From assembly GCA_964373425.1 (NCBI GenBank), contig CAYJUQ010000019.1, forward strand, positions 1 through 13,120: a stretch of 13,120 nt of DNA. The letters run 5' to 3'. The translations under genes and the position numbers were made by a program. The DNA comes from an uncultured Candidatus Saccharibacteria bacterium (GTDB lineage: Bacteria; Patescibacteriota; Minisyncoccia; JAHCSD01; CAYJUQ01). This document shows positions 142 through 11,766 of the stretch, in pieces. How positions within the stretch are numbered: position 1 is the stretch's first letter; every line of letters begins with the position of its first letter. The notes under the pieces were generated by a model. It was not told where the DNA came from. It ran no database searches and saw nothing but the letters and a program-made list of their open reading frames with translations.

Positions 142-2193
142 ATGATATATGGGCTTATCGCAGTTGGTGCGGTCGCAGGGATTTTGATTCTCTTGTTCGT
201 GTTGCCTGGTTTTAGTCTGATTCGCGACCACCAAGTCGGCGTGCTTACCCGAAAAATGTTCGGGAAGAAAATGCCGCAAGGTCAGATCGTCGCGCGAAAT
301 AATGAGATCGGTATTCAGGCGCATACGCTCATGCCCGGTCTTTACTGGCGCTTGCCTATCGTATGGAAAATTGAGAAGGTTCAAGTAACTGACATCAATC
401 CCGATGAGATTGGTGTTGTCGAATCAGTTGACGGCAAACCAATTCCCACTGGACGGTTCCTCGCTGATGAAGTTGAGTGCAATTCATTCCAGGACGCAAA
501 GAAATTTCTTGATGACGGCGGGATGAAAGGGCCACAAGTTGCGATCCTTCGTCCCGGTACCTACCGAATCAACACAAAGGTTTTTACGGTAACGAAACAT
601 CCGGCAAGGAACGTTCCGAAAGAGCAAATGGGGGTTGTGGTTGCACTCGATGGCACACCGCTCCCGCCCGGCTTCATAGTGGCGCCCAAGCCACCCGAGA
701 TTTCTAGTAATGCACAACCGAATGCCAAGCCGCACAAGTTCTTTCAAGACGGTCAGGCATTCCTTGAGAGCGGGGGGTACCGTGGGCCGCAGCTCGATAC
801 GCTTCAGCCGGGCCAGTACTACGTAAATCCGCTGCTCTTCAGGGTTGATCTTTTCCCCGTGCAGGATGTTCCGCCCGGCTATGTTGCCGTGCTTCGTTCA
901 AACGTCGGCAAGGAACTCGATCAGAGCCACAAGACGCCGGCTGAGACAAGCCTCAAACCAGATCTCGGACAGCCGGTCCACGAATCAATCGAGACAATCT
1001 TGATTATGGATCGCGACACGCGGGGTATTTGGAATCAGCCGGTTGCGCCGGGTAAGTATAACTTGAACCCGGTTGCATTTACGCCGTACCTCGTGCCTAC
1101 AAGCGCAGTCACCATTGACTGGGCCCGCGGGAAGCGCGATCAGGAGGCGGAGCATGCAAACCCCGTCGATGAACGTACGTATGTTCATCGTGATACATCT
1201 GAGCACGACAAAGCCACAGAATTTTTCAAGTTCAGTCAGCTGCGCGTGACTTCGAAAGACGGATTCCAGCTCGATGTGGATGTTCGAATGGTAATTCGCA
1301 TCAGGCCCGAGAATGCCGCGTTCATCATCGCGCGGTTCGGTTCGGTGCGAAACCTCATCGAGCAGATTGTGCATCCCATGATCGATTCGTCCTTCCGCAA
1401 CAAGGCGGGCGAGAAGAAAGCAATCGATTTCGTGCAGACTCGTTCTGAACTCCAGAAAGAGGCGCTCGAGAAGGCACGTGAAGAGTTTCAACTGTACCAC
1501 GTTGAAGCGCAAAACCTCCTCATCGCCTATATCGCCGTTGATCAGGCACTTCTTGACACACAGACACTAAGAGAGATTGCGCTCCAGCAGCAGGAGCAGT
1601 ACCGCGAGCAAACAAGGGCAGAACAAGAACGGATCACGGTCCAGGAGCAAAGAGCACGTGCTGAAAAGCAGCCCGAGGTTGTTGCGGCAGAACTCGCAAT
1701 CAATATTGCAAGAAACAGGGCTTCTGCAGCTCGCGAAGAGGCGAATGGTATCCGTGACGCGACGAAAACCAAAGCTGATGGTGATGCATACCAACAGCGT
1801 GCGGTGGGTCGTGGCACTGCCGATGCATACCAAGCTCAGGCGAATGTACTTGGTTCTCAAGCTACCGCGATTCTTAAGGCGCTCGCTGAAGTTGCAAGCG
1901 GAAGCGTGAAGATCGTTCCCGACGTACTCGTTACGGGTAACCAAGGACAGCAGGGTAATCTCTTCAACGCATGGCTTGCAAACATGATGCGTAATCCCCA
2001 GGGTCCTTCCGGCGCCACGTTCACTTCTCGTGATGCGGCAACGGATGACCCCTCGTCACCAGCGGAGAGCCCTTCGGCGCAAGGTCAAGATGTAGATGCG
2101 CCGTCATCCGTCGCCAAGGCAAGCGGCAGATCTCGAAGACGAAATAGTGGTAGAGGCAAGGAGATAGAAAGTTCGGCTCCCCACTACGAGTAA
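142..2193 (+). CDS. SPFH/band-7 (flotillin-like) membrane protein with an N-terminal TM anchor, an internally repeated N-terminal segment, a coiled-coil/flotillin-like C-terminal region and a disordered acidic/basic tail
   Basis: 683-aa ORF. Strong RBS AGGAGG at 131-136, 5 nt before the ATG. A hydrophobic helix spans aa 4-26. Band-7 core motifs are present (RVTSKDGFQLDVDVRMVIRIRPENAA...IEQIVHPMIDSSFRNKAG). The C-terminal region is rich in E/A/Q/R (AEQERITVQEQRARAEKQ...AYQQRAVGRGTADAYQAQANVLG), as is typical of HflK/C-flotillin family proteins. Confidence 0.85.
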   Translation: MIYGLIAVGAVAGILILLFVLPGFSLIRDHQVGVLTRKMFGKKMPQGQIVARNNEIGIQAHTLMPGLYWRLPIVWKIEKVQVTDINPDEIGVVESVDGKPIPTGRFLADEVECNSFQDAKKFLDDGGMKGPQVAILRPGTYRINTKVFTVTKHPARNVPKEQMGVVVALDGTPLPPGFIVAPKPPEISSNAQPNAKPHKFFQDGQAFLESGGYRGPQLDTLQPGQYYVNPLLFRVDLFPVQDVPPGYVAVLRSNVGKELDQSHKTPAETSLKPDLGQPVHESIETILIMDRDTRGIWNQPVAPGKYNLNPVAFTPYLVPTSAVTIDWARGKRDQEAEHANPVDERTYVHRDTSEHDKATEFFKFSQLRVTSKDGFQLDVDVRMVIRIRPENAAFIIARFGSVRNLIEQIVHPMIDSSFRNKAGEKKAIDFVQTRSELQKEALEKAREEFQLYHVEAQNLLIAYIAVDQALLDTQTLREIALQQQEQYREQTRAEQERITVQEQRARAEKQPEVVAAELAINIARNRASAAREEANGIRDATKTKADGDAYQQRAVGRGTADAYQAQANVLGSQATAILKALAEVASGSVKIVPDVLVTGNQGQQGNLFNAWLANMMRNPQGPSGATFTSRDAATDDPSSPAESPSAQGQDVDAPSSVAKASGRSRRRNSGRGKEIESSAPHYE

Positions 2194-2348: not shown

Positions 2349-2377
2349 TTGATAAAATAGAAGTAGCGTGCTATACT
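2349..2377 (+). promoter_or_regulatory. Sigma-70 promoter TTGATA-17-TATACT driving clpB
   Basis: TTGATA at 2349-2354, a 17-nt spacer, TATACT at 2372-2377. A CIRCE element lies immediately downstream, which is the classic layout of HrcA-regulated promoters. Confidence 0.7.
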
Positions 2378-2382
2378 TGCCA

Positions 2383-2409
2383 TTAGCACTCTCATAAGAA
2401 GAGTGCTAA
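2383..2409 (+). promoter_or_regulatory. CIRCE element (HrcA operator), a perfect match to the consensus TTAGCACTC-N9-GAGTGCTAA
   Basis: TTAGCACTC at 2383-2391, the 9-nt spacer tcataagaa, GAGTGCTAA at 2401-2409. It starts 6 nt after the -10 hexamer and is upstream of clpB. Confidence 0.9.
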
Positions 2410-2431: not shown

Positions 2432-2475
2432 TCGAGGGTCAATCCATCGTTTCGAAATAATGGATTGGCCCTCGA
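2432..2475 (+). other. 16-bp inverted repeat (one G-U/mismatch) forming a hairpin across the annotated ATG at 2460, in the clpB leader
   Basis: TCGAGGGTCAATCCAT at 2432-2447, a 12-nt loop, ATGGATTGGCCCTCGA at 2460-2475. Confidence 0.5.
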
Positions 2476-5165
2476 ACAGACTACTTCATTCTATGGATTT
2501 AAGTAAATTTACCGTAAAAGCACAAGAGGCGTTACGGAACGCCCAAGGGGTTGCGGGCGAGCGAGGTCATCAGCAAATTGATGCACTCCATCTTCTTGCG
2601 GCGCTCGTTCGCGAAGAGGATGGGATTGTTGCTTCAATCCTCGATCACCTCGGCCTCGATAAAATGGCGCTCATTGAGCGAACCTCCATTGCCATAAATC
2701 GTCTCCCGCGAATCGTGGGAGATTTACCGTTTGGGCAGGTGTATATCACTCAAGATCTCGGGCGCGTTCTTGATACGGCCGCAAAAGAAGCAAAAAACAT
2801 GACCGACGAGTTTATCAGCACCGAACATTTACTTCTTTCTCTTACCGACGTTCCCACGCGCGCGAAAGAGGTGATTGATGAGTTTAATGTCTCGGGGCCG
2901 CAACTCGTTGGGGTTGGCGGCAAAAAGGGACGTGAGAAATTAAATCGGGATATTATCCTCAAGGTGCTTGCAGAGCTTCGCGGCGGTACGCGCGTCTCCG
3001 ATGAGAACCCGGAATCGAAGTATCAGGTGCTTGAGAAGTATGCGCGAAACATCACAAAAATGGCACGGGGGCAGAAGCTTGATCCCGTGATCGGCCGCGA
3101 GAATGAAATTCGTAGAGTCATGCAAGTTTTGTCGCGCCGCACGAAGAATAACCCCGTACTTATTGGAGAGGCAGGCGTGGGGAAGACGGCCATTGTCGAG
3201 GGGCTTGCCCAGCGCATCGCATCGGGCGATGTCCCGGAAAGCCTCAAGGGGAAGGAGGTGATCGCCATGGACCTTGGGGCAATGGTTGCAGGTACCAAGT
3301 ATCGGGGTGAATTTGAAGATCGTCTCAAGGCGTTTGTCCGCGAGATTGAGAGAGCCGCAGGGAAAATCATACTTTTTATTGACGAGCTTCATATGCTTGT
3401 GGGGGCGGGCGCTGCTGAAGGCGCAATTGACGCATCAAATCTTTTAAAACCGGCACTTGCTCGCGGGGAGCTCCACGCCATTGGCGCAACTACGTTCAAA
3501 GAGTACCAGAAATATGTGGAACGGGATCCGGCGCTTGAACGCCGCTTCCAACCGGTCTATGTGAAAGAGCCGAGTATCGACGATACGATCGCGATCCTCC
3601 GCGGTATTAAGGAAAAATATGAAGTCTTCCATGGTGTTCGCATTACCGATCCTGCCATTCTTGGCGCGGTGAACCTCTCGGCGCGGTATATCTCCGACAG
3701 GTTCCTACCCGATAAAGCCGTAGACCTTATTGATGAAGCATGCTCTGCCCTTCGTATGGATATTGAAAGTCAACCGCAGGAGCTCGACGCGTTGAGTCGC
3801 GAAATCACGCGTCTTGAGGTTGAAAAACAGGCACTCAAAAAAGAAAGCGACAAGAAGAGTAAAGAGCGGCTGAGGCTTACCACAAAGATTCTCGAGGAGG
3901 AGAAAGAGAAGGCGAAAAGTTTGGAGCTTCGTTGGAAGAGTGAGCGGGATGTGATCAGCGCGATCAACAATACGAAAAAAGAATTGGACACTCTGCGAGA
4001 ACAGGCGGATATCTTTGAACGAAAGGGAGACCTTGAAAAGGTGGCAGAAGTTCGCTACGCGAAAGTCCCCGAGCTTGAAAAAGAGCTCCGTAGAAAACAG
4101 CGCGAACTTGCCAAACTCCAAAAAACAAAGGCGATCGTCAAAGAAGAGGTCACGGAAGAGGATATCGCCAAAGTGGTTTCCCGCTGGACGGGTATTCCTG
4201 TTGCAAAAATGCTTCAGGAAGAAGTGGTAAAACTTGCTTCAATGGAGGTGGAACTTCACAAACGCGTTATCGGGCAGGATGAAGCGATCGAGGCCGTTTC
4301 GAACGCGGTACGAAGATCACGCGCAGGGATCGGCGAGGAGCGAAAACCCATCGGTACCTTTATCTTTCTTGGCCCCACGGGTGTCGGGAAAACCGAGCTT
4401 GCAAAGGCCCTTGCCGAGTTTATGTTCAACGATGAAAATGCGCTCGTCCGTGTTGATATGTCGGAGTACATGGAATCGCACACCGTATCAAAGTTCATTG
4501 GCTCACCCCCAGGATACATTGGCTATGAGGAAGGAGGACAGCTTACCGAGATGGTGCGACGTCGCCCCTATAGCGTTGTCCTTTTCGATGAGATCGAAAA
4601 AGCGCATGCCGAAGTTTTCAATATTCTCCTTCAGATACTTGACGAGGGAAGGCTTACCGATGCGAAAGGGCGGGCAGTGAACTTTAAAAATACCATCGTT
4701 ATCATGACCTCAAACATCGGCACCGAACTTACCCGACGTCTTGCGCATCTCGGCTTTTCTGCGAAAGACGAGGATCATGAAAAGGAAGAAGATATTAAAC
4801 AAAAAATTCGCGATGCCCTGCACCACCACTTCAAACCGGAATTTTTGAACCGGCTTGATGAGATCATCGTCTTCGACAGCCTAAAAGAGAAAGATATTCG
4901 CGCGATAGTTGATCTCCAGCTTGCCCAGGTTTCAAAACGGCTCCAGGCAAAAGGCATTCGGATCGAGTTTAAGGAACAAGTGAAAAAGGTGCTTGCCCAA
5001 AAGGGGTTCGATCCTGATTTTGGCGCACGACCCTTGAAACGCGTCATCCAACAGTTGGTACTCGATGCCGCCGCAAAACTCATCATTGCCGGGAAGATCA
5101 AAGAAGGAGGAGGCGTGGTTGTTGATGTGAAAGGCGATGAAGTCATCATAAGGGCCGCGCCGTAA
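2460..5165 (+). CDS. clpB: ClpB disaggregase chaperone (class I AAA+, two NBDs plus a coiled-coil M-domain). The true start is probably the in-frame ATG at 2493 ([14 protein letters not shown]...).
   Basis: Walker A of NBD1 is [18 protein letters not shown] and Walker A of NBD2 is [18 protein letters not shown] long coiled-coil middle domain and a C-terminal GARPLKR motif are present. The length (about 890-901 aa) fits ClpB and not ClpA or ClpC. The canonical ClpB N-terminus MDL.KFT begins at codon 12. Confidence 0.95.
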
Positions 5166-5188: not shown

Positions 5189-5890
5189 ATGTTTTCACTT
5201 TTCATCCCCTCTTTTCTTTTTTTCGTGGTGCTTGAGATAGCACGCGCGAACCCCTCTTCTTTTTTTATTTTTGCGCCTCTTACCATTTTCGCCCAGATAC
5301 TCATCGGGCTTTTTGGTTTGAAAAAGCCATCGCGTTACCTTCTCCCCGCGTTCTATGTTGTCTCGGGGCTTCTTGTCACGCTCGCACCCCCCCCTACGCC
5401 GCAGCACCACCTCCTCTTTATTCTTATCAGTGTGGGGTATGCGTTTCTCGTCTTCGCCCTGCGTCATATGGGCGAATCTTCCCGTGATGAGGAGCGTTTT
5501 CATCTTCTTTCGCTTGCATGTCTTTTTATATTTTTTGTGAGCATCTTTTACCTTGCCGCGTTCTTTAACGTATCGTTCACCGCGATGCTTTTTGCGATTG
5601 CGCTTGGTGCAGGGTGGATAACATTCATCACCATCCCTCGCTCACCCTACTCGTTTCTTTCAAGCCTCCTCGGCGCGCTCCTTATGTCTGAGACAGGTTG
5701 GGCCATATCGTTTTTCCCCTTTAGCTATTTAACCATTGCCTCTTTCCTTTTTATCATCTACTATACCCTGTGGAAGCTCCTTCGGGCATCGCTCACCCAG
5801 ACGCTTACACGACGTGTGCTTATCGCCAATCTCCTTTTCTTGTTGGCGGGCGGCGCGGTGATCGCAGTTCTTACTCCTTGGCTTCCCTAA
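5189..5890 (+). CDS. Hypothetical polytopic membrane protein (about 6-7 predicted TM helices)
   Basis: 233-aa ORF consisting of repeated hydrophobic stretches (LLPAFYVVSGLLVTL, LFILISVGYAFLVFAL, LACLFIFFVSIFYLAAFF, AMLFAIALGAGWITFITI and others). It is tightly packed between clpB and the next gene (7-nt gap). No SD is visible and the start codon is uncertain. Confidence 0.5.
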   Translation: MFSLFIPSFLFFVVLEIARANPSSFFIFAPLTIFAQILIGLFGLKKPSRYLLPAFYVVSGLLVTLAPPPTPQHHLLFILISVGYAFLVFALRHMGESSRDEERFHLLSLACLFIFFVSIFYLAAFFNVSFTAMLFAIALGAGWITFITIPRSPYSFLSSLLGALLMSETGWAISFFPFSYLTIASFLFIIYYTLWKLLRASLTQTLTRRVLIANLLFLLAGGAVIAVLTPWLP

Positions 5891-5896
5891 CTTTAT

Positions 5897-6652
5897 ATGG
5901 GGCGTACGCAAAAGCTTTTTTTCTTTCTTTTCGTGTGTGCGATTGGCGCTCTCGGCGGGATCGTTGGTGAGCGCGTTGTGTTTCCTTACCTTGCATCATT
6001 CGAGACGCTTGCAAAGTTTCGATTTATTAGGAGCTACGGAACCACTATTATCAGGCAGGAACCTAGAGTGGTGATCCAGGAAAATGAATCCATCCAAAAC
6101 GCAATAAGCGAGGTGAGGCGACAAGTGATAGGTGTTGCAGGGGTGGCGAGCGACGGCACGTTCGACCGATGGGCAACAGGCGTTGTGGTGACTGCAGACG
6201 GTCTTATTCTCACCTCCGATAACGTTCTTGGAGAGGGGCTCACCTACAGGGTGTACTTTGAGGGCGAGAATGTGAGCGCCGCGTTCCGCATCCGTGATTC
6301 ACATACCGGGCTTGCCCTTTTCCGTGTAGAGAAATCTGATCTTCCTATTGTTTCGTTTGCGGCACGCGATAGTATCCGGCTTGGAGAGCCAATTTTTCTC
6401 CTTGGCCGTGAGCCTGCAAGCGGAGGGAACCTCCCCCCGCCATTTATCTCTTTCGGGATTTTGAGCTTTCTTGCCGAAAGCCGGACATTTCGCACAGAGT
6501 TTCCCACCGGCGTACGAACCGGCAGAGAAGGCGCACCGCTCTTTGACGTGGAGGGAAAGCTCATCGGACTTGTTTCGGCAAAGAGCGACGGCGAACTCAT
6601 CCCCGCCAATATTGAAGCAATTACCACCCTTATTGATCTTTCGCGTAACTAA
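5897..6652 (+). CDS. Membrane-anchored HtrA/DegP-like (S1C trypsin-fold) domain protein lacking a PDZ domain. It appears catalytically dead because the triad residues are substituted.
   Basis: N-terminal hydrophobic anchor (LFFFLFVCAIGALGGIVG). The trypsin-fold blocks can be aligned to DegP as follows. TGVVVTADGLILTSDNVL aligns with GSGVII..GYVVTNNHVV. RIRDSHTGLALFRV aligns with VGKDPRSDIALIQI. RLGEPIFLLGRE aligns with RVGDYTVAIGNP. PTGVRTGREGAPLFDVEGKLIGL aligns with TDAAINRGNSGGALVNLNGELIGI. His becomes Asn, Asp becomes Gly and Ser becomes Glu. Confidence 0.65.
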   Translation: MGRTQKLFFFLFVCAIGALGGIVGERVVFPYLASFETLAKFRFIRSYGTTIIRQEPRVVIQENESIQNAISEVRRQVIGVAGVASDGTFDRWATGVVVTADGLILTSDNVLGEGLTYRVYFEGENVSAAFRIRDSHTGLALFRVEKSDLPIVSFAARDSIRLGEPIFLLGREPASGGNLPPPFISFGILSFLAESRTFRTEFPTGVRTGREGAPLFDVEGKLIGLVSAKSDGELIPANIEAITTLIDLSRN

Positions 6653-6681: not shown

Positions 6682-7719
6682 ATGAACCTTCTCATTACCG
6701 GCGGTGCCGGATTCATCGGCTCAAACTTCATACGTCACATCCTCTTCACCTATCCAGACTATCGCATTATTAATCTTGATAAGCTCACTTACGCAGGGAA
6801 TCTTGAAAACCTTAAGGATATTGAGAATTATCCGCGGTATGGGTTTGTGAAAGGCGATATCTGTGATCGTGAGCTTGTCGATAGGCTTGTTTCGCGTCGG
6901 CCCGATGCTATTATTAACTTCGCGGCGCATTCGCACGTGGATCGCTCCATTCTTGATCCGACTGCGTTCATTCATGATAATTTCATTGGCGTTCAAATCC
7001 TGCTTGAAGCGGCAAAAAAGCATAAAGTTGAACGATTTGTTCAGGTGAGCACCGACGAGGTTTACGGCTCGGTTGACGAGGGGTACTGTGATGAAGGCGC
7101 GAAGCTTGACCCCCGAAATCCCTATTCAGTGTCTAAAGCAGCAGCCGATCTCCTTTCGCTTTCGTACTCGAAAACCCACGGTGTCCCCGTTATTATTACT
7201 CGTTCATCCAATAATTTCGGCCCCCATCAATTTCCGGAAAAACTTATTCCGCTTTTCATCACGAATCTTCTTGAGGGCAAAAAAGTTCCCCTCTATGGAG
7301 ACGGGATGAACCTTCGCGATTGGCTGCATGTCGCTGATAACTGCGAAGCGATTGATCGCGTGCTCCACGAAGGGAACGCGGGGGAGATTTATAACATCGC
7401 GGGAGCGAACGAACGGACCAACCGTGAAATTACCGAGGTCATTCTTGAGGAGCTGGGGAAAGACGAAAGCTCGATTACATACGTTGAGGATCGGCCGGGA
7501 CATGACAGACGCTACGCGATAAGCGCAGCAAAAATACAAAGTCTTGGCTGGGAGCCGAAGTACCGCTTCAAAGAGGCGCTTCGCGACACCATCGCGTGGT
7601 ACAGGAACAACGAGGAGTGGTGGCGGCGTATAAAATCAGGTGCGTACCAGGATTACTACCAAAAGCAGTATGGCGGGCGGAAGGTTTTGCATGACGCATC
7701 GGCACTTCCGATCGCATAA
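6682..7719 (+). CDS. rmlB: NDP-glucose 4,6-dehydratase of the RmlB/RfbB family (extended SDR)
   Basis: TGGAGFIGS Rossmann motif. The family-specific blocks are present: LDKLTYAGNLENL, AAHSHVDRSI, STDEVYG, YSVSKAAAD (YxxxK), NNFGPHQFPEKLIP, PLYGDGMNLRDWLHVAD and RPGHDRRYAI. Length is 345 aa. Confidence 0.9.
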   Translation: MNLLITGGAGFIGSNFIRHILFTYPDYRIINLDKLTYAGNLENLKDIENYPRYGFVKGDICDRELVDRLVSRRPDAIINFAAHSHVDRSILDPTAFIHDNFIGVQILLEAAKKHKVERFVQVSTDEVYGSVDEGYCDEGAKLDPRNPYSVSKAAADLLSLSYSKTHGVPVIITRSSNNFGPHQFPEKLIPLFITNLLEGKKVPLYGDGMNLRDWLHVADNCEAIDRVLHEGNAGEIYNIAGANERTNREITEVILEELGKDESSITYVEDRPGHDRRYAISAAKIQSLGWEPKYRFKEALRDTIAWYRNNEEWWRRIKSGAYQDYYQKQYGGRKVLHDASALPIA

Positions 7720-7725
7720 CGTGTG

Positions 7726-7764
7726 CGGAGGTCTCGCCCCCTTCTCACGAGGGCGAGACCTCCG
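7726..7764 (+). other. GC-rich 14-bp perfect hairpin between the rmlB stop and the galU start, with no trailing T-run
   Basis: CGGAGGTCTCGCCC at 7726-7739, an 11-nt loop, GGGCGAGACCTCCG at 7751-7764. The GTG at 7723 that the ORF track uses as a start lies inside this stem. Confidence 0.5.
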
Positions 7765-7770
7765 TGTACT

Positions 7771-8652
7771 ATGACGTCTTGGAAGGTAAAAAAAGTTGTT
7801 ATTCCCGTTGCAGGGCTTGGCACACGGTTCTTGCCGGCAACAAAAGCAGTCCCCAAGGAACTTCTTCCCATTGTTGATACGCCAGTGGTGCAGTATCTTG
7901 TCGAAGAAGCAGTGGCCTCTGGTATCCAAGAGGTTATTTTTGTTATTTCTCCTGACAAGGAAACTATCCGCCACCACTTTTCAAAACATCACGCACTTGA
8001 ACGGCAGCTCCTTTCACGAAAAAAGCACGATCTGGTTGAGATCGTGCGGGATGTTGCTCGTCTTGCATCATTTTCGTTCGTCTATCAGCATGAGCCAAGG
8101 GGCGATGCCCATGCGATACTTTGCGCAAAGCGTATGGTGGGAGATGAGCCGTTCGCCGTGCTCTACGGCGATGACGTGGTAGATGCAAAAACCCCCGTTT
8201 TAAAACAGCTCCTTCGGGCGTTTGAGAAATACCGTGCACCCATTATGGCGCTTGAGCGTTTACCTCGCGAGGTGCTCCACCGCTACGGCGTCGTAGGCGC
8301 AACGCGCGTTAGAGAGCGAACGTACCGCATTGCAGGCGTTGTGGAAAAGCCATCACCCCGGGAGGCGCCCTCCAATCTTACGATTGTAGGGAAGTACGTT
8401 CTTCCTCCACGCAGTATGGGAACGTTAGAGAAAGTGATTCGCCGGGGGCAATCCTTTCCGTTTGAAACACGACTTACCGATTTTTTCCTTTCATGGCTTG
8501 CCGAAGGAAAACCACTTTACGGCGTTGAATTTAGGGGAGAGCGTTTTGACTGCGGCGACAAACTTGGCTATGTGAAGGCGCAAATCCACTTCGCGATGAA
8601 GCGAAAAGACCTTAGCGCCGAGCTCCGATCATATCTTAAAAAGATTAAATAG
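7771..8652 (+). CDS. galU: UTP--glucose-1-phosphate uridylyltransferase (GalU). ATG start at 7771 (the ORF track begins at an upstream GTG at 7723).
   Basis: The nucleotidyltransferase motifs are present: KVVIPVAGLGTRFLPATKAVPKELLP; VEKPSPREAPSNLTIVGKYVL, which corresponds to GalU [21 protein letters not shown]; and DCGDKLGYVKAQ, which corresponds to DCGNKLGYMQA. Length is about 293 aa from 7771. Confidence 0.9.
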   Translation: MTSWKVKKVVIPVAGLGTRFLPATKAVPKELLPIVDTPVVQYLVEEAVASGIQEVIFVISPDKETIRHHFSKHHALERQLLSRKKHDLVEIVRDVARLASFSFVYQHEPRGDAHAILCAKRMVGDEPFAVLYGDDVVDAKTPVLKQLLRAFEKYRAPIMALERLPREVLHRYGVVGATRVRERTYRIAGVVEKPSPREAPSNLTIVGKYVLPPRSMGTLEKVIRRGQSFPFETRLTDFFLSWLAEGKPLYGVEFRGERFDCGDKLGYVKAQIHFAMKRKDLSAELRSYLKKIK

Positions 8653-8686
8653 AACGGGGGGGCAGACCCCTACGGTTGCGCTATGT

Positions 8687-8718
8687 AAAATGCCACGCGG
8701 TTCTTTGCGTGGCATTTT
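8687..8718. terminator. Bidirectional intrinsic terminator between convergent genes
   Basis: AAAATGCCACGC-GGTTCTTT-GCGTGGCATTTT followed by GTTT. An A-run and a T-run flank a 12-bp stem. It lies between the galU stop (8652) and the stop of the minus-strand ORF (8722). Confidence 0.75.
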
Positions 8719-8721
8719 GTT

Positions 8722-9069
8722 TCACTTTCTTTTTAGTATCTCGAATGATTCCACCTCGCCCGTACTCAATGTTGCACTACCACCCTCAAGACCGAATTCG
8801 AGTCGCAGCCCCCTGATAATCCATCCGGCCTTGAGCACGTTGTCGGTTCCTTTCGATCCGCGGAACCAGACCTCCTCCCCATTTTTGGTAAAGTGTTTTC
8901 CTCCATTGAGGAATACCCTTCTCTTTTTAGGGTCAAGGACGATGAGCTCATACGAGGTCGGTGTCGAGGGGTTTCTTGTGATAACACGGATTACGGTCCT
9001 TCGAGAGAGCCTTTCAATACAGAGTCGGTTATCTGACTCGTCTTTAAGTGATTCAGTTCTTCGCTTCAA
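8722..9069 (-). CDS. Hypothetical small protein (115 aa) with a TTG start
   Basis: Strong SD GGGAGGT 5 nt upstream of the TTG at 9067-9069 (minus strand). It has its own promoter and is convergent with galU. The basic N-terminus and the core SYELIVLDPKKRRVFLNGGKHFTKNGEEVWFRGSKGTDNVLKAGWIIRGL show no motif I can assign. Confidence 0.6.
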   Translation of the reverse strand: MKRRTESLKDESDNRLCIERLSRRTVIRVITRNPSTPTSYELIVLDPKKRRVFLNGGKHFTKNGEEVWFRGSKGTDNVLKAGWIIRGLRLEFGLEGGSATLSTGEVESFEILKRK

Positions 9070-9123
9070 CTTATACCTCCCATCTCTTGTTTTGTCTTGG
9101 CGGGTGGGCTAAGCGATGTGGGT

Positions 9124-9651: not shown

Positions 9652-10821
9652 TCATACATCAGGTTTCATAATAACCGAGAGAATCATACCAACCGTACTC
9701 CAGTCAGCAAGATTTTCGAGGAGCAATTCTTTAAGAGATCGGATTTCAACATAGGTTCTCTCGCCCGTGGGATTATCCTTGCTTAGCCCATGGACAATCC
9801 CTTCTTGTTGATGCAGCCACTCAAGTTCTTTCTGCGTAAGCTTCACAGAAAATACATGGGCCGTGTGGGTCGAAAAAGTTCCAACAAGCTGCCGCCTGCC
9901 GTGTGACTTAAGGCGTTCTTTCTCTACCGAGAATCCGGTTTCTTCGTTTACTTCTTCGGAAGCGACTTCGAGAGGATCAGTATTTGGTGTAAACGATGAA
10001 CCTCCGGGAAGTTCCCAGATGAATCCATCGGGAGTTCGGGCAGGACTCCGAAATTCACGGACAAGCACAACTTTTGATTCCAGAATCTTGCTCTCGGGGT
10101 AGTACATGACCACCGTAGAGATGTCGGGCCGAGAGAGGATAACCTCGTTTGTTTTGTTTCGGTTTTCTTTGGCCACATGGACGTTTACATGCAGGGCCCA
10201 ACAGTAAACATTATTGCGTTTCGGGCCAACGCGGAATACCCATTTTACTGCGGCGCCATCAAGACGATTTCCTGCTCCTTGCTGGGTTTGATACCACGAC
10301 TGGAATTGAGATGTATTCCAGATCATGAGAGGAACATACCGTTCGCCTTCCGCGCGAAGAGCTCCATTGCCAACCATTTGAAGCGCATACGCAATGGTTT
10401 CCCGTAACGTATGGGCTTCTGGGATACCTGTTTTTTCAGCTACAACGCGTAGGTAGTTAGTCTTCGGTGCCTTTTGGGGAGCACCAAAGACAACCTTTGC
10501 CGATTCGGCCCAAAGACCAAACTCGACATTTGTGGTAAAGGCGGGCATCGTCTTCAGATTCCTTGGTACCCAGAATACGATGCAATCTGCGATTCCGAGC
10601 ATTCGATGTTCCCAATCGATTTGTGAGCGGTATGACCAGGTCATTTTTCCATCTCTGCTTTCGGGGACAAATACTACCCCGTCGTAGCCACACTTCGTAA
10701 GAATGCGCAGGGCTCGAGGCCGCCACGATGCAACCGTTGCTGATCGAGGAGTTGGTCCGGCAAGAAAAAGAGATTTGGTAAATGAACTCGGGGGTTCTTC
10801 CATCGAATACACCACGTGCAT
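9652..10821 (-). CDS. Two-domain fusion protein: an N-terminal DNPH1/Rcl- or nucleoside 2-deoxyribosyltransferase-like domain and a C-terminal Nudix hydrolase domain
   Basis: SD GGAGGG 5 nt upstream of the ATG. The N-terminal region (FLAGPTPRS...GVVFVPE...IDWEHRMLGIADCIVFWVP...TNVEFGLWAES) follows the DNPH1/NDT fold pattern (FCGSIRGG...LTEHV...DLEWLQQADVVVAEV...GVGYELGRA), including the catalytic Glu. The C-terminal region carries a degenerate Nudix box (GGSSFTPNTDPLEVASEEVNEETGF) flanked by beta-rich segments. Confidence 0.75.
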   Translation of the reverse strand: MHVVYSMEEPPSSFTKSLFLAGPTPRSATVASWRPRALRILTKCGYDGVVFVPESRDGKMTWSYRSQIDWEHRMLGIADCIVFWVPRNLKTMPAFTTNVEFGLWAESAKVVFGAPQKAPKTNYLRVVAEKTGIPEAHTLRETIAYALQMVGNGALRAEGERYVPLMIWNTSQFQSWYQTQQGAGNRLDGAAVKWVFRVGPKRNNVYCWALHVNVHVAKENRNKTNEVILSRPDISTVVMYYPESKILESKVVLVREFRSPARTPDGFIWELPGGSSFTPNTDPLEVASEEVNEETGFSVEKERLKSHGRRQLVGTFSTHTAHVFSVKLTQKELEWLHQQEGIVHGLSKDNPTGERTYVEIRSLKELLLENLADWSTVGMILSVIMKPDV

Positions 10822-10944: not shown

Positions 10945-11766
10945 CTACAAAAATCGATTAATGTCTCCTGCGAAGATAAGGAAGATAAGCGTTACAATTG
11001 CAACTATCGAGACGAGTCCAAAGAGCGGCAGCGCTTGTTTTCCGAGCACCCGTTCGATAATCATCCCGAAAATCCTGCCACCATCAAGCGGCAGAAGCGG
11101 CAGCATGTTGAAAATGCCGATTCCGAAGGAGATAGCCACCGCAAGGCGGAACACCTCGATCGCCGTCTTCAACGTCGTTGCTTCATGCGTGATGCCGATG
11201 GGGCCGATCAGTATCGGATCTTTGTCTGCCGGAGCACCGCCGTGGAGCGCTGATTCCTGAAAGTTTTCTATAAGTCCTGGAATCAGGGTGTAGAGGAGGA
11301 GGCCCACAAACGCAAGGCCGAGTATCGGAATACCGATGCTGCAGAATAGTTTCGAAAATCGCACGATGACAAGGGCAATCGCAGTCATGGCGATAAGACG
11401 AATGTAGACCGCCGGTTCACCAAGATCTTTGAAAATAAAGAGCGCGATGATCGTAAGGAGACTCCCCACAAGGACGTTTCCGAGCACTCCCGCGCCGAAA
11501 ATCAAAGCGCGCTCGCGGTAGGGGAGGGCATTTGTTTGTTGATTGCCTCGCGGTGTTGGCTCAACATAAGCACCGAGGAAGATGGGGGAGAGGGTTAAGG
11601 GGAACGAGAGCCATGGTACTCGAAACCGAAATATAAATCCCGGAATCGGGATGCCGAGCCCCGCTTCTTTAATCTCTACACCATACCTTCGCATCGCAAT
11701 CGCATGCGCAGCTTCATGAATTACAAGGTTCAAAATCAAAAACACAAAGATGAACGCGATATTCAT
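10945..11766 (-). CDS. M50 family site-2 protease (zinc metalloprotease), minimal type without a PDZ domain
   Basis: HExxH motif within a TM helix (VIHEAAHAIAMRRYGV). A second conserved motif is NMLPLLPLDGGRIFGMI (the LDG motif). About 6 TM segments are predicted. Length is 273 aa. Confidence 0.85.
   Translation of the reverse strand: MNIAFIFVFLILNLVIHEAAHAIAMRRYGVEIKEAGLGIPIPGFIFRFRVPWLSFPLTLSPIFLGAYVEPTPRGNQQTNALPYRERALIFGAGVLGNVLVGSLLTIIALFIFKDLGEPAVYIRLIAMTAIALVIVRFSKLFCSIGIPILGLAFVGLLLYTLIPGLIENFQESALHGGAPADKDPILIGPIGITHEATTLKTAIEVFRLAVAISFGIGIFNMLPLLPLDGGRIFGMIIERVLGKQALPLFGLVSIVAIVTLIFLIFAGDINRFL

Follow-up and report, generated by a model that had tools for sequence, protein, structure and literature searches.

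A family of HtrA-fold proteins without the catalytic triad is encoded next to clpB in Patescibacteria

The window analyzed here, a 13,120-nucleotide stretch of contig CAYJUQ010000019.1 (assembly GCA_964373425.1) from an uncultured Candidatus Saccharibacteria bacterium, encodes a protein of 251 amino acids that has the fold of the HtrA protease domain but none of the three residues of its catalytic triad. This protein, which we denote pseudo-HtrA (5897 to 6652, plus strand, ATG start), is one member of a large family of Patescibacteria, apparently not described before, in which the loss of the catalytic residues is the family-wide state and no local accident, and in which the gene is almost always found directly behind the gene for the heat-shock disaggregase ClpB. 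Pseudo-HtrA is probably a non-catalytic HtrA paralogue that takes part in protein quality control in the cell envelope and is made together with ClpB, with a holdase activity as the favored version of this role.

The Pfam domain Trypsin_2, which represents the HtrA protease fold, matches residues 93-225 of pseudo-HtrA (6173 to 6571, plus strand) over the entire profile (positions 1-144 of 144; E-value 2.7e-18; score 67.5 bits, with the cut-off at 27.6); an HtrA-type chymotrypsin-like double beta-barrel protease domain is thus present. The NCBIfam models for HtrA, DegS, and MarP match weakly (17-37 bits, with cut-offs of 200-800), and a phmmer search against all Protein Data Bank (PDB) sequences retrieved DegP-like, DegQ, DegS, AlgW, and HTRA1/2 chains (best E-value 2e-9). 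In the phmmer alignment to the DegP-like structure 5y28, the blocks around the catalytic residues pair as ILTSDNVL/IVTNNHVI, SHTGLAL/SESDLAV, and TGREGAPL/PGNSGGAL. The same catalytic register was obtained in three independent alignments, namely this one, a MAFFT alignment with genuine HtrAs of related loci, and an alignment of the family profile with HTRA1. The catalytic His position is occupied by Asn109 (codon AAC, 6221 to 6223; aligned to 5y28, the genuine HtrAs, and HTRA1), the Asp position by Gly138 (GGG, 6308 to 6310), and the Ser position by Glu211 (GAA, 6527 to 6529; both aligned to 5y28 and the genuine HtrAs); all three codons, on the plus strand, were checked. True HtrAs in the same alignment run carry His, Asp, and Ser at these positions. 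The initial annotation, made by eye from the sequence, had proposed exactly these three substitutions, and the profile alignments bear it out.

No substitute for the triad is apparent either: the sole histidine of the protein, H136, falls in a column that is not conserved across the family, and no alternative catalytic constellation was seen in the conservation analysis of 151 family representatives. The absence of a PDZ domain, also predicted earlier, holds as well; Pfam found no match to it in pseudo-HtrA, and the protein stops at residue 251, 26 residues past the Trypsin_2 match. In the MAFFT alignment with genuine HtrAs, pseudo-HtrA lacks the regions of the regulatory loops LA and L3. Without the triad, a PDZ domain, or these two loops, pseudo-HtrA is not a member of the HtrA/DegP (S1C) family in the enzymatic sense, and from its sequence the protein is predicted to be unable to cleave peptide bonds. 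Sequencing error and pseudogene status were both ruled out: an independent assembly (Logan ERR3478686) encodes an identical protein (100% identity), restoring Asp at Gly138 or Ser at Glu211 would take at least two base changes each, and conservation is family-wide, in genes with low ratios of nonsynonymous to synonymous substitution rates (dN/dS; see below).

AlphaFold modeling of pseudo-HtrA from a 102-sequence alignment, used in place of a two-sequence alignment that yielded a pLDDT of only 37, gave a model with a pLDDT of 91.3 and a pTM of 0.76, in which a long N-terminal helix (residues 3-33) is joined by a short linker to a two-barrel domain. A Foldseek search of the PDB with this model retrieved the protease domains of HTRA1, DegS, and DegQ (E-values of about 1e-14, target TM-scores of about 0.8), in agreement with the fold assigned earlier. 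In structural comparisons, the model scored 22.8 with DegQ, 22.7 with Deg5 (a natural PDZ-less HtrA), 21.5 with the S1C ectodomain of RsgI9, 20.3 with MamO, and 18 or lower with trypsin-fold proteases outside the HtrA group.

A word-indexed homologue search returned a single relative of the same architecture (P0002, 238 amino acids, 31% identical). An exhaustive profile search over 1.84 billion representatives yielded 98 matches below an E-value of 1e-30 and 643 below 1e-10. Of the 150 matches listed, nearly all are 225-260 amino acids long and match the profile end to end; the family comprises 150 or more distinct representatives that share a length of about 240 amino acids and the same architecture (an anchor helix followed by an HtrA barrel, without PDZ). 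Residue columns were counted on 151 representatives (the best 150 of 643 matches listed). The catalytic His column contains Ser (39), Asp (33), Glu (29), and Asn (15), along with Thr, Gly, Lys, and Ala, and His itself only once; the Asp column is dominated by Asn (95) and Gly (30), with Asp in 12 sequences; and the Ser column holds 19 residue types, of which Ser (25), Asn (22), Gln (15), Lys (13), Ala (13), Glu (12), and Leu (12) are the most frequent. The residues conserved across the family are glycines and structural blocks common to real HtrAs.

A complementary scan of one genome per species, run with a six-sequence query subset that samples the main clade only, located 410 loci. The 80 loci retained are almost all labeled Patescibacteria, mainly Paceibacteria, Nealsonbacteria, and Parcubacteria. 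The neighboring full-length HtrAs (Trypsin_2 plus PDZ) in these loci provide an internal control: they retain the catalytic His in 53/53, Asp in 53/53, and Ser in 52/53 cases, whereas the short pseudo copies in the same loci have His in 0/79, Asp in 5/79, and Ser in 18/79. A complete His-Asp-Ser triad was found in none of the 151 representatives and none of the 79 genome copies. Of the two outcomes that would have overturned the initial annotation, a triad in the profile alignments or an intact triad in orthologues, neither occurred. Pairwise dN/dS values for pseudo-htrA (0.07-0.25) are similar to those for true htrA (0.05-0.26), with values of 0.03-0.12 for clpB, and the pseudo-htrA gene is therefore under purifying selection. 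The main-clade proteins have a further peculiarity: two residues after the canonical Ser, within the motif G-S-P-L-F-D, all 79 of them contain an invariant serine, at a position that is Gly in true HtrAs and Ala in the window protein (Ala213) and a few others.

The short pseudo-HtrAs have no curated family model beyond the generic Trypsin_2 in Pfam or NCBIfam, one source annotates them as 'S1-C subfamily serine protease', and no description of a clpB-linked short pseudo-HtrA family was found in the full-text searchable literature. HtrA-fold pseudoproteases as such are already known; what appears to be new is the PDZ-less, clpB-coupled family of Patescibacteria, together with the subclade and the PDZ-bearing intermediates described below.

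The association with clpB, which had been noted for the window, turned out to be stronger than claimed. clpB is the immediate upstream gene, on the same strand, in 77/77 informative loci (77 of the 80 kept; the other three have no upstream DNA). The spacers between clpB and pseudo-htrA range from -31 to +88 nucleotides, with a single exception of 383 nucleotides, and many are stop/start overlaps of -1, -4, or -8 nucleotides; in the loci of the 31%-identical relative, pseudo-htrA overlaps clpB by 17 nucleotides. Where 2.5 kb or more of sequence is available upstream of clpB (52 loci), a true htrA lies there in 48, in 25 cases within 200 nucleotides. The conserved core is htrA-clpB-pseudo-htrA. 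A conserved downstream partner gene was ruled out, given that the genes downstream of pseudo-htrA vary across loci. Upstream of the three-gene core in the main-clade loci, we observed genes for a GT2 glycosyltransferase (40 loci), a glycosidase-like protein of 331 amino acids (28 loci), and, in some cases, a diacylglycerol kinase; these recurring genes suggest a wider envelope-related neighborhood.

The N-terminal membrane anchor and the envelope location proposed in the initial annotation are both supported. Residues 7-25 (5915 to 5971, plus strand) form a transmembrane signal-anchor with a mean Kyte-Doolittle hydropathy of 2.16 over 19 residues, contained within the modeled helix 3-33, and only six residues stand before the hydrophobic helix in the window protein. 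The glycines G17, G20, and G21 of the anchor are conserved at 86-89% in the 151 representatives as a G-x-x-G-G motif that reads IGALGG in the window protein; the anchor-helix motifs of true HtrAs are different. Short pseudo-HtrAs typically have a tail of about seven residues with two lysines or arginines ahead of the helix, and the balance of these residues is higher on the N side in 27 and on the C side in seven, with the rest tied. PDZ-bearing relatives with a homologous helix have long N tails strongly rich in lysine and arginine, and in true HtrAs the N side of the helix carries 4.7 such residues and the C side 1.3. The barrel of pseudo-HtrA is thus most likely located outside the cytoplasmic membrane, as in monoderm HtrA, which makes direct contact with cytoplasmic ClpB unlikely.

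The nearest relative of the window protein (P0008, 40% identical) is encoded in a locus with the gene order clpB-DUF5656-pseudo-htrA-rmlC-rmlB-rmlD-rmlA (L088), with which the window order clpB-DUF5656-pseudo-htrA-rmlB-rmlA agrees. A metagenome scan with the subclade of the window yielded only two loci. A more distant metagenome locus (L090) has htrA-clpB-DUF5656 followed by a pseudo-HtrA that retains the PDZ domain (4979 to the contig end). A complete PDZ-bearing pseudo-HtrA of 387 amino acids (L089, 96 to 1259; Trypsin_2 and PDZ_2 in Pfam) has Gly, Asn, and Leu in place of His, Asp, and Ser, and another (P0120, 397 amino acids) has Gln at the His position and Asn at the Asp position, with the NSGGP loop intact. 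The PDZ-bearing forms share the anchor-helix motif IIGGxxGI ... FPYLA with the short form and retain the L3 loop region. These three proteins look like evolutionary intermediates between true HtrAs and the short family, and they may mark a path from an HtrA paralogue through a dead protease with a PDZ domain to the short form.

Three divergent loci have the DUF5656 gene between clpB and pseudo-htrA (5189 to 5890 in the window, 1461 to 2222 in L088, and 3955 to 4695 in L090), and their DUF5656 proteins are 28-32% identical to one another and share a conserved C-terminal motif, SE(T/A)GWAI..PFSYLT. It is absent from the 7-kb flanks of the 80 main-clade loci; a homologue search with the DUF5656 protein matched only itself, and the searched literature contains no mention of DUF5656. 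This protein may be a second partner of pseudo-HtrA.

In the window, clpB (2460 to 5165, plus strand; an open reading frame of 901 amino acids, in which translation may in fact begin with the ATG at 2494) encodes an AAA+ disaggregase with the Pfam domains Clp_N, AAA, AAA_lid_9, AAA_2, and ClpB_D2-small, 57-66% identical to the ClpB proteins of related loci. It is preceded by a sigma-70-like promoter (TTGATA-17 nt-TATACT, with TG before the -10 hexamer; 2349 to 2377, plus strand; 10/12 matches in a consensus scan). Five nucleotides past the -10 hexamer, between this promoter and clpB, lies a perfect CIRCE element, the operator consensus of HrcA (TTAGCACTC TCATAAGAA GAGTGCTAA; 2383 to 2409, plus strand; no mismatches), of the 9-N9-9 form TTAGCACTC-N9-GAGTGCTAA. 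The chance expectation for such a site is zero, and 200 shuffles produced no match. The CIRCE operator assumed in the initial annotation is thus borne out for the window, although not for the family, as discussed below. A Pfam scan found no hrcA on the 13-kb contig.

The gene that follows clpB (5189 to 5890, plus strand) encodes a polytopic membrane protein of 233 amino acids with seven hydrophobic segments, as claimed earlier, and with a match to DUF5656 (PF18900; a score of 24.3 bits, above the cut-off of 23.3). The spacer between the two genes is 23 nucleotides, as originally noted, and the next one, between DUF5656 and pseudo-htrA, is 6 rather than 7 nucleotides, placing pseudo-htrA 731 nucleotides past the end of clpB. 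An rmlB-like gene (6682 to 7719), encoding a dTDP-glucose dehydratase homologue (GDP_Man_Dehyd/Epimerase in Pfam), begins 29 nucleotides after the pseudo-htrA stop, followed by an rmlA-like gene (7723 to 8652; NTP_transferase), both on the plus strand and possibly part of the same transcription unit. None of the spacers that separate the genes between 5165 and 8652 contains a convincing terminator hairpin; the first strong terminator-like hairpin past clpB, with a 16-bp stem and a T-rich tail, was detected by a hairpin scan at 8685 to 8720 (plus strand). Given the short spacers (23 and 6 nucleotides) and the lack of an intergenic terminator, co-transcription of clpB, DUF5656, pseudo-htrA, and perhaps the rml genes is plausible.

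Several characterized proteins provide points of comparison for pseudo-HtrA. With HtrA, DegP, DegQ, and DegS (MEROPS S1C, including the membrane-anchored HtrA of monoderms), it shares the barrel fold, and it differs from them in that the triad, PDZ, and the regions of loops LA and L3 are absent. The DegP S210A variant has a chaperone activity that is independent of proteolysis. The protease domain of HTRA1 alone suppresses and reverses aggregation, likewise independent of proteolysis (PMC10948756). These activities could serve as a mechanistic model for a dead HtrA barrel without PDZ; HTRA1 and DegP, however, are active enzymes studied as engineered mutants, whereas the predicted inactivity of pseudo-HtrA is natural and conserved. 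MamO, an HtrA-fold pseudoprotease of magnetotactic bacteria, activates MamE non-catalytically (PMC4794232). It has a surface di-histidine metal site and a fused TauE-like transporter domain and functions in the magnetosome context, none of which applies to pseudo-HtrA, in which Trypsin_2 is the only domain and a di-histidine site is impossible because the protein contains a single histidine; the two also differ in phylum, clpB linkage, and origin, which is independent. In the plant protease DEG7, a degenerate protease domain mediates trimerization (PMC3194040). Here, the likeness is that a copy of the HtrA protease domain, arisen by duplication, has become inactive and been retained for protein-protein interaction, but the dead domain of DEG7 is fused to an active one in a eukaryotic polypeptide, whereas pseudo-HtrA is a separate, membrane-anchored bacterial protein. 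Finally, RsgI9 of Clostridium thermocellum is an anti-sigma factor with an S1C-like ectodomain (PDB 7sjy) that binds cellulose (PMC12203970). RsgI9 combines an anti-sigma domain in the cytoplasm with an NTF2-like domain; pseudo-HtrA, by contrast, has about six cytoplasmic residues and nothing past the barrel.

The most likely role of pseudo-HtrA is non-proteolytic protein quality control in the envelope. A single signal-anchor helix would tether the HtrA-type double beta-barrel to the outside of the cytoplasmic membrane, and in the window, the clpB-DUF5656-pseudo-htrA locus would be driven by the CIRCE/HrcA-type heat-shock promoter. As a holdase, the barrel would use what is left of its substrate cleft to bind unfolded exported polypeptides and prevent their aggregation, making pseudo-HtrA the ATP-independent counterpart of ClpB outside the membrane. 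Pseudo-HtrA may be a regulator or adaptor, as the initial annotation proposed. An extended scheme, which we consider unlikely, casts pseudo-HtrA as the extracytoplasmic part of an anti-aggregation module that spans two compartments: it would be an ATP-independent holdase or disaggregase made in a fixed ratio with the ATP-driven ClpB of the cytoplasm and would, in some lineages, work with the DUF5656 protein. To our knowledge, Patescibacteria lack most envelope chaperones.

Several observations weigh against the proposed envelope role. The Ser position and the loops lining the cleft vary widely across the family, which is unlike the prediction for a conserved peptide-binding site. Taken by itself, the short form shows a modest positive-inside signal. 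Upstream of clpB, sites resembling CIRCE (five mismatches or fewer) are present in only three other related loci; CIRCE was therefore rejected as a general feature of the family, and HrcA control is a feature of the window locus rather than a family trait. A Pfam scan detected no true HtrA on the 13-kb contig of the window. In addition, in a distance-matrix (mirror-tree) comparison of pseudo-HtrA with the neighboring HtrA, no special signal of co-evolution was seen; the partial correlation given ClpB was 0.24, below the other partial correlations.

The last two observations bear also on the next candidate after the holdase, in which pseudo-HtrA would have no action on substrates of its own and would instead be a non-catalytic subunit or regulator of genuine HtrA. 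It would associate with HtrA by way of its anchor helix, rich in glycines, and its trimer-forming protease domain, and would thereby tune or scaffold the protease. Through mixed trimers or packing of the GxxGG helices, it could set the localization, oligomeric state, or activity of the protease. The DEG7 domain and MamO offer precedents by analogy, and a genuine htrA is found just upstream of clpB in most relatives. We nevertheless regard this explanation as possible rather than probable: the partial correlation with HtrA is weak and neither supports nor excludes it, true HtrA and pseudo-HtrA have different anchor-helix motifs, and true HtrA is missing not only from the window contig but also from L088 and from the sequenced part of L001-type contigs. 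It is quite improbable that the adjacency to clpB is inherited synteny without functional meaning and that the protein has another envelope role, such as binding of polysaccharides or other ligands in the manner of RsgI9. The pairing with clpB persists down to 25-30% identity among pseudo-HtrAs while the downstream neighbors vary freely, and the frequent stop/start overlaps of the two genes point to coupled expression; signaling in the manner of an anti-sigma factor is impossible because only about six residues are cytoplasmic.

Ligand binding of the RsgI9 type is less likely than the holdase or HtrA-partner roles, and so is cryptic catalysis, in which pseudo-HtrA would still be an enzyme that employs a non-canonical set of residues, for instance the Ser two residues past the nucleophile together with an acidic residue at the His position. 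In the main clade, such a set could be assembled from the serine at nucleophile +2, found in 79/79 proteins, and the Glu or Asp that occupies the His position in 62/79. The window protein, in contrast, has Ala213 and Asn109 at these positions and a single, unconserved His; across the 151 representatives, the His column accepts Ser, Asp, Glu, Asn, Thr, Gly, Lys, and Ala and the Ser column 19 residue types, and no polar residue is conserved outside the structural blocks common to real HtrAs. Residual enzymatic activity is accordingly very hard to credit, and a non-proteolytic role in envelope quality control, most plausibly as a holdase, is the reading that we prefer.

The rest of the window contains several additional features. 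The hairpin at 8685 to 8720 overlaps the start of an open reading frame of 140 amino acids (8690 to 9112) that has no Pfam or NCBIfam match; the hairpin probably terminates the clpB...rmlA unit, and the reading frame, or at least its start, is doubtful. Upstream of the heat-shock promoter, a gene for a 683-amino acid protein (142 to 2193, plus strand), in which the only recognizable domain is SPFH/Band 7 (residues 303-495), forms a separate unit closed by terminator hairpins at 2203 to 2230 and 2309 to 2331. SPFH proteins are frequently linked to membrane protein quality control. On the minus strand, 9652 to 10821 encodes a 389-amino acid protein in which a nucleoside 2-deoxyribosyltransferase-like domain (PF15891) is fused to a NUDIX hydrolase domain, an unusual architecture for nucleotide salvage, and 10945 to 11766 encodes a short (273 amino acids) M50/RseP-like site-2 metalloprotease without PDZ, a few kilobases from pseudo-htrA. 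Rfam and tRNA scans of the window found nothing.

So far, dead HtrA-fold proteins have been known as a few special cases, namely MamO, the degenerate second protease domain of DEG7, and the S1C domain of RsgI9, described as inactive. Pseudo-HtrA adds a large family that is under purifying selection in hundreds of species-level genomes of Patescibacteria, organisms with reduced genomes, where its annotation as a serine protease is a systematic error that can now be corrected. Its near-invariant, often overlapping place behind clpB, usually with htrA in front, defines a conserved three-gene proteostasis module. If pseudo-HtrA is a natural protease-dead HtrA chaperone, a non-proteolytic activity of the HtrA barrel would have been selected on its own, and the family would offer a simple system in which to separate the chaperone and protease functions of HtrA. 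Should the two-compartment module prove true, Patescibacteria would handle misfolded exported proteins without degrading them.

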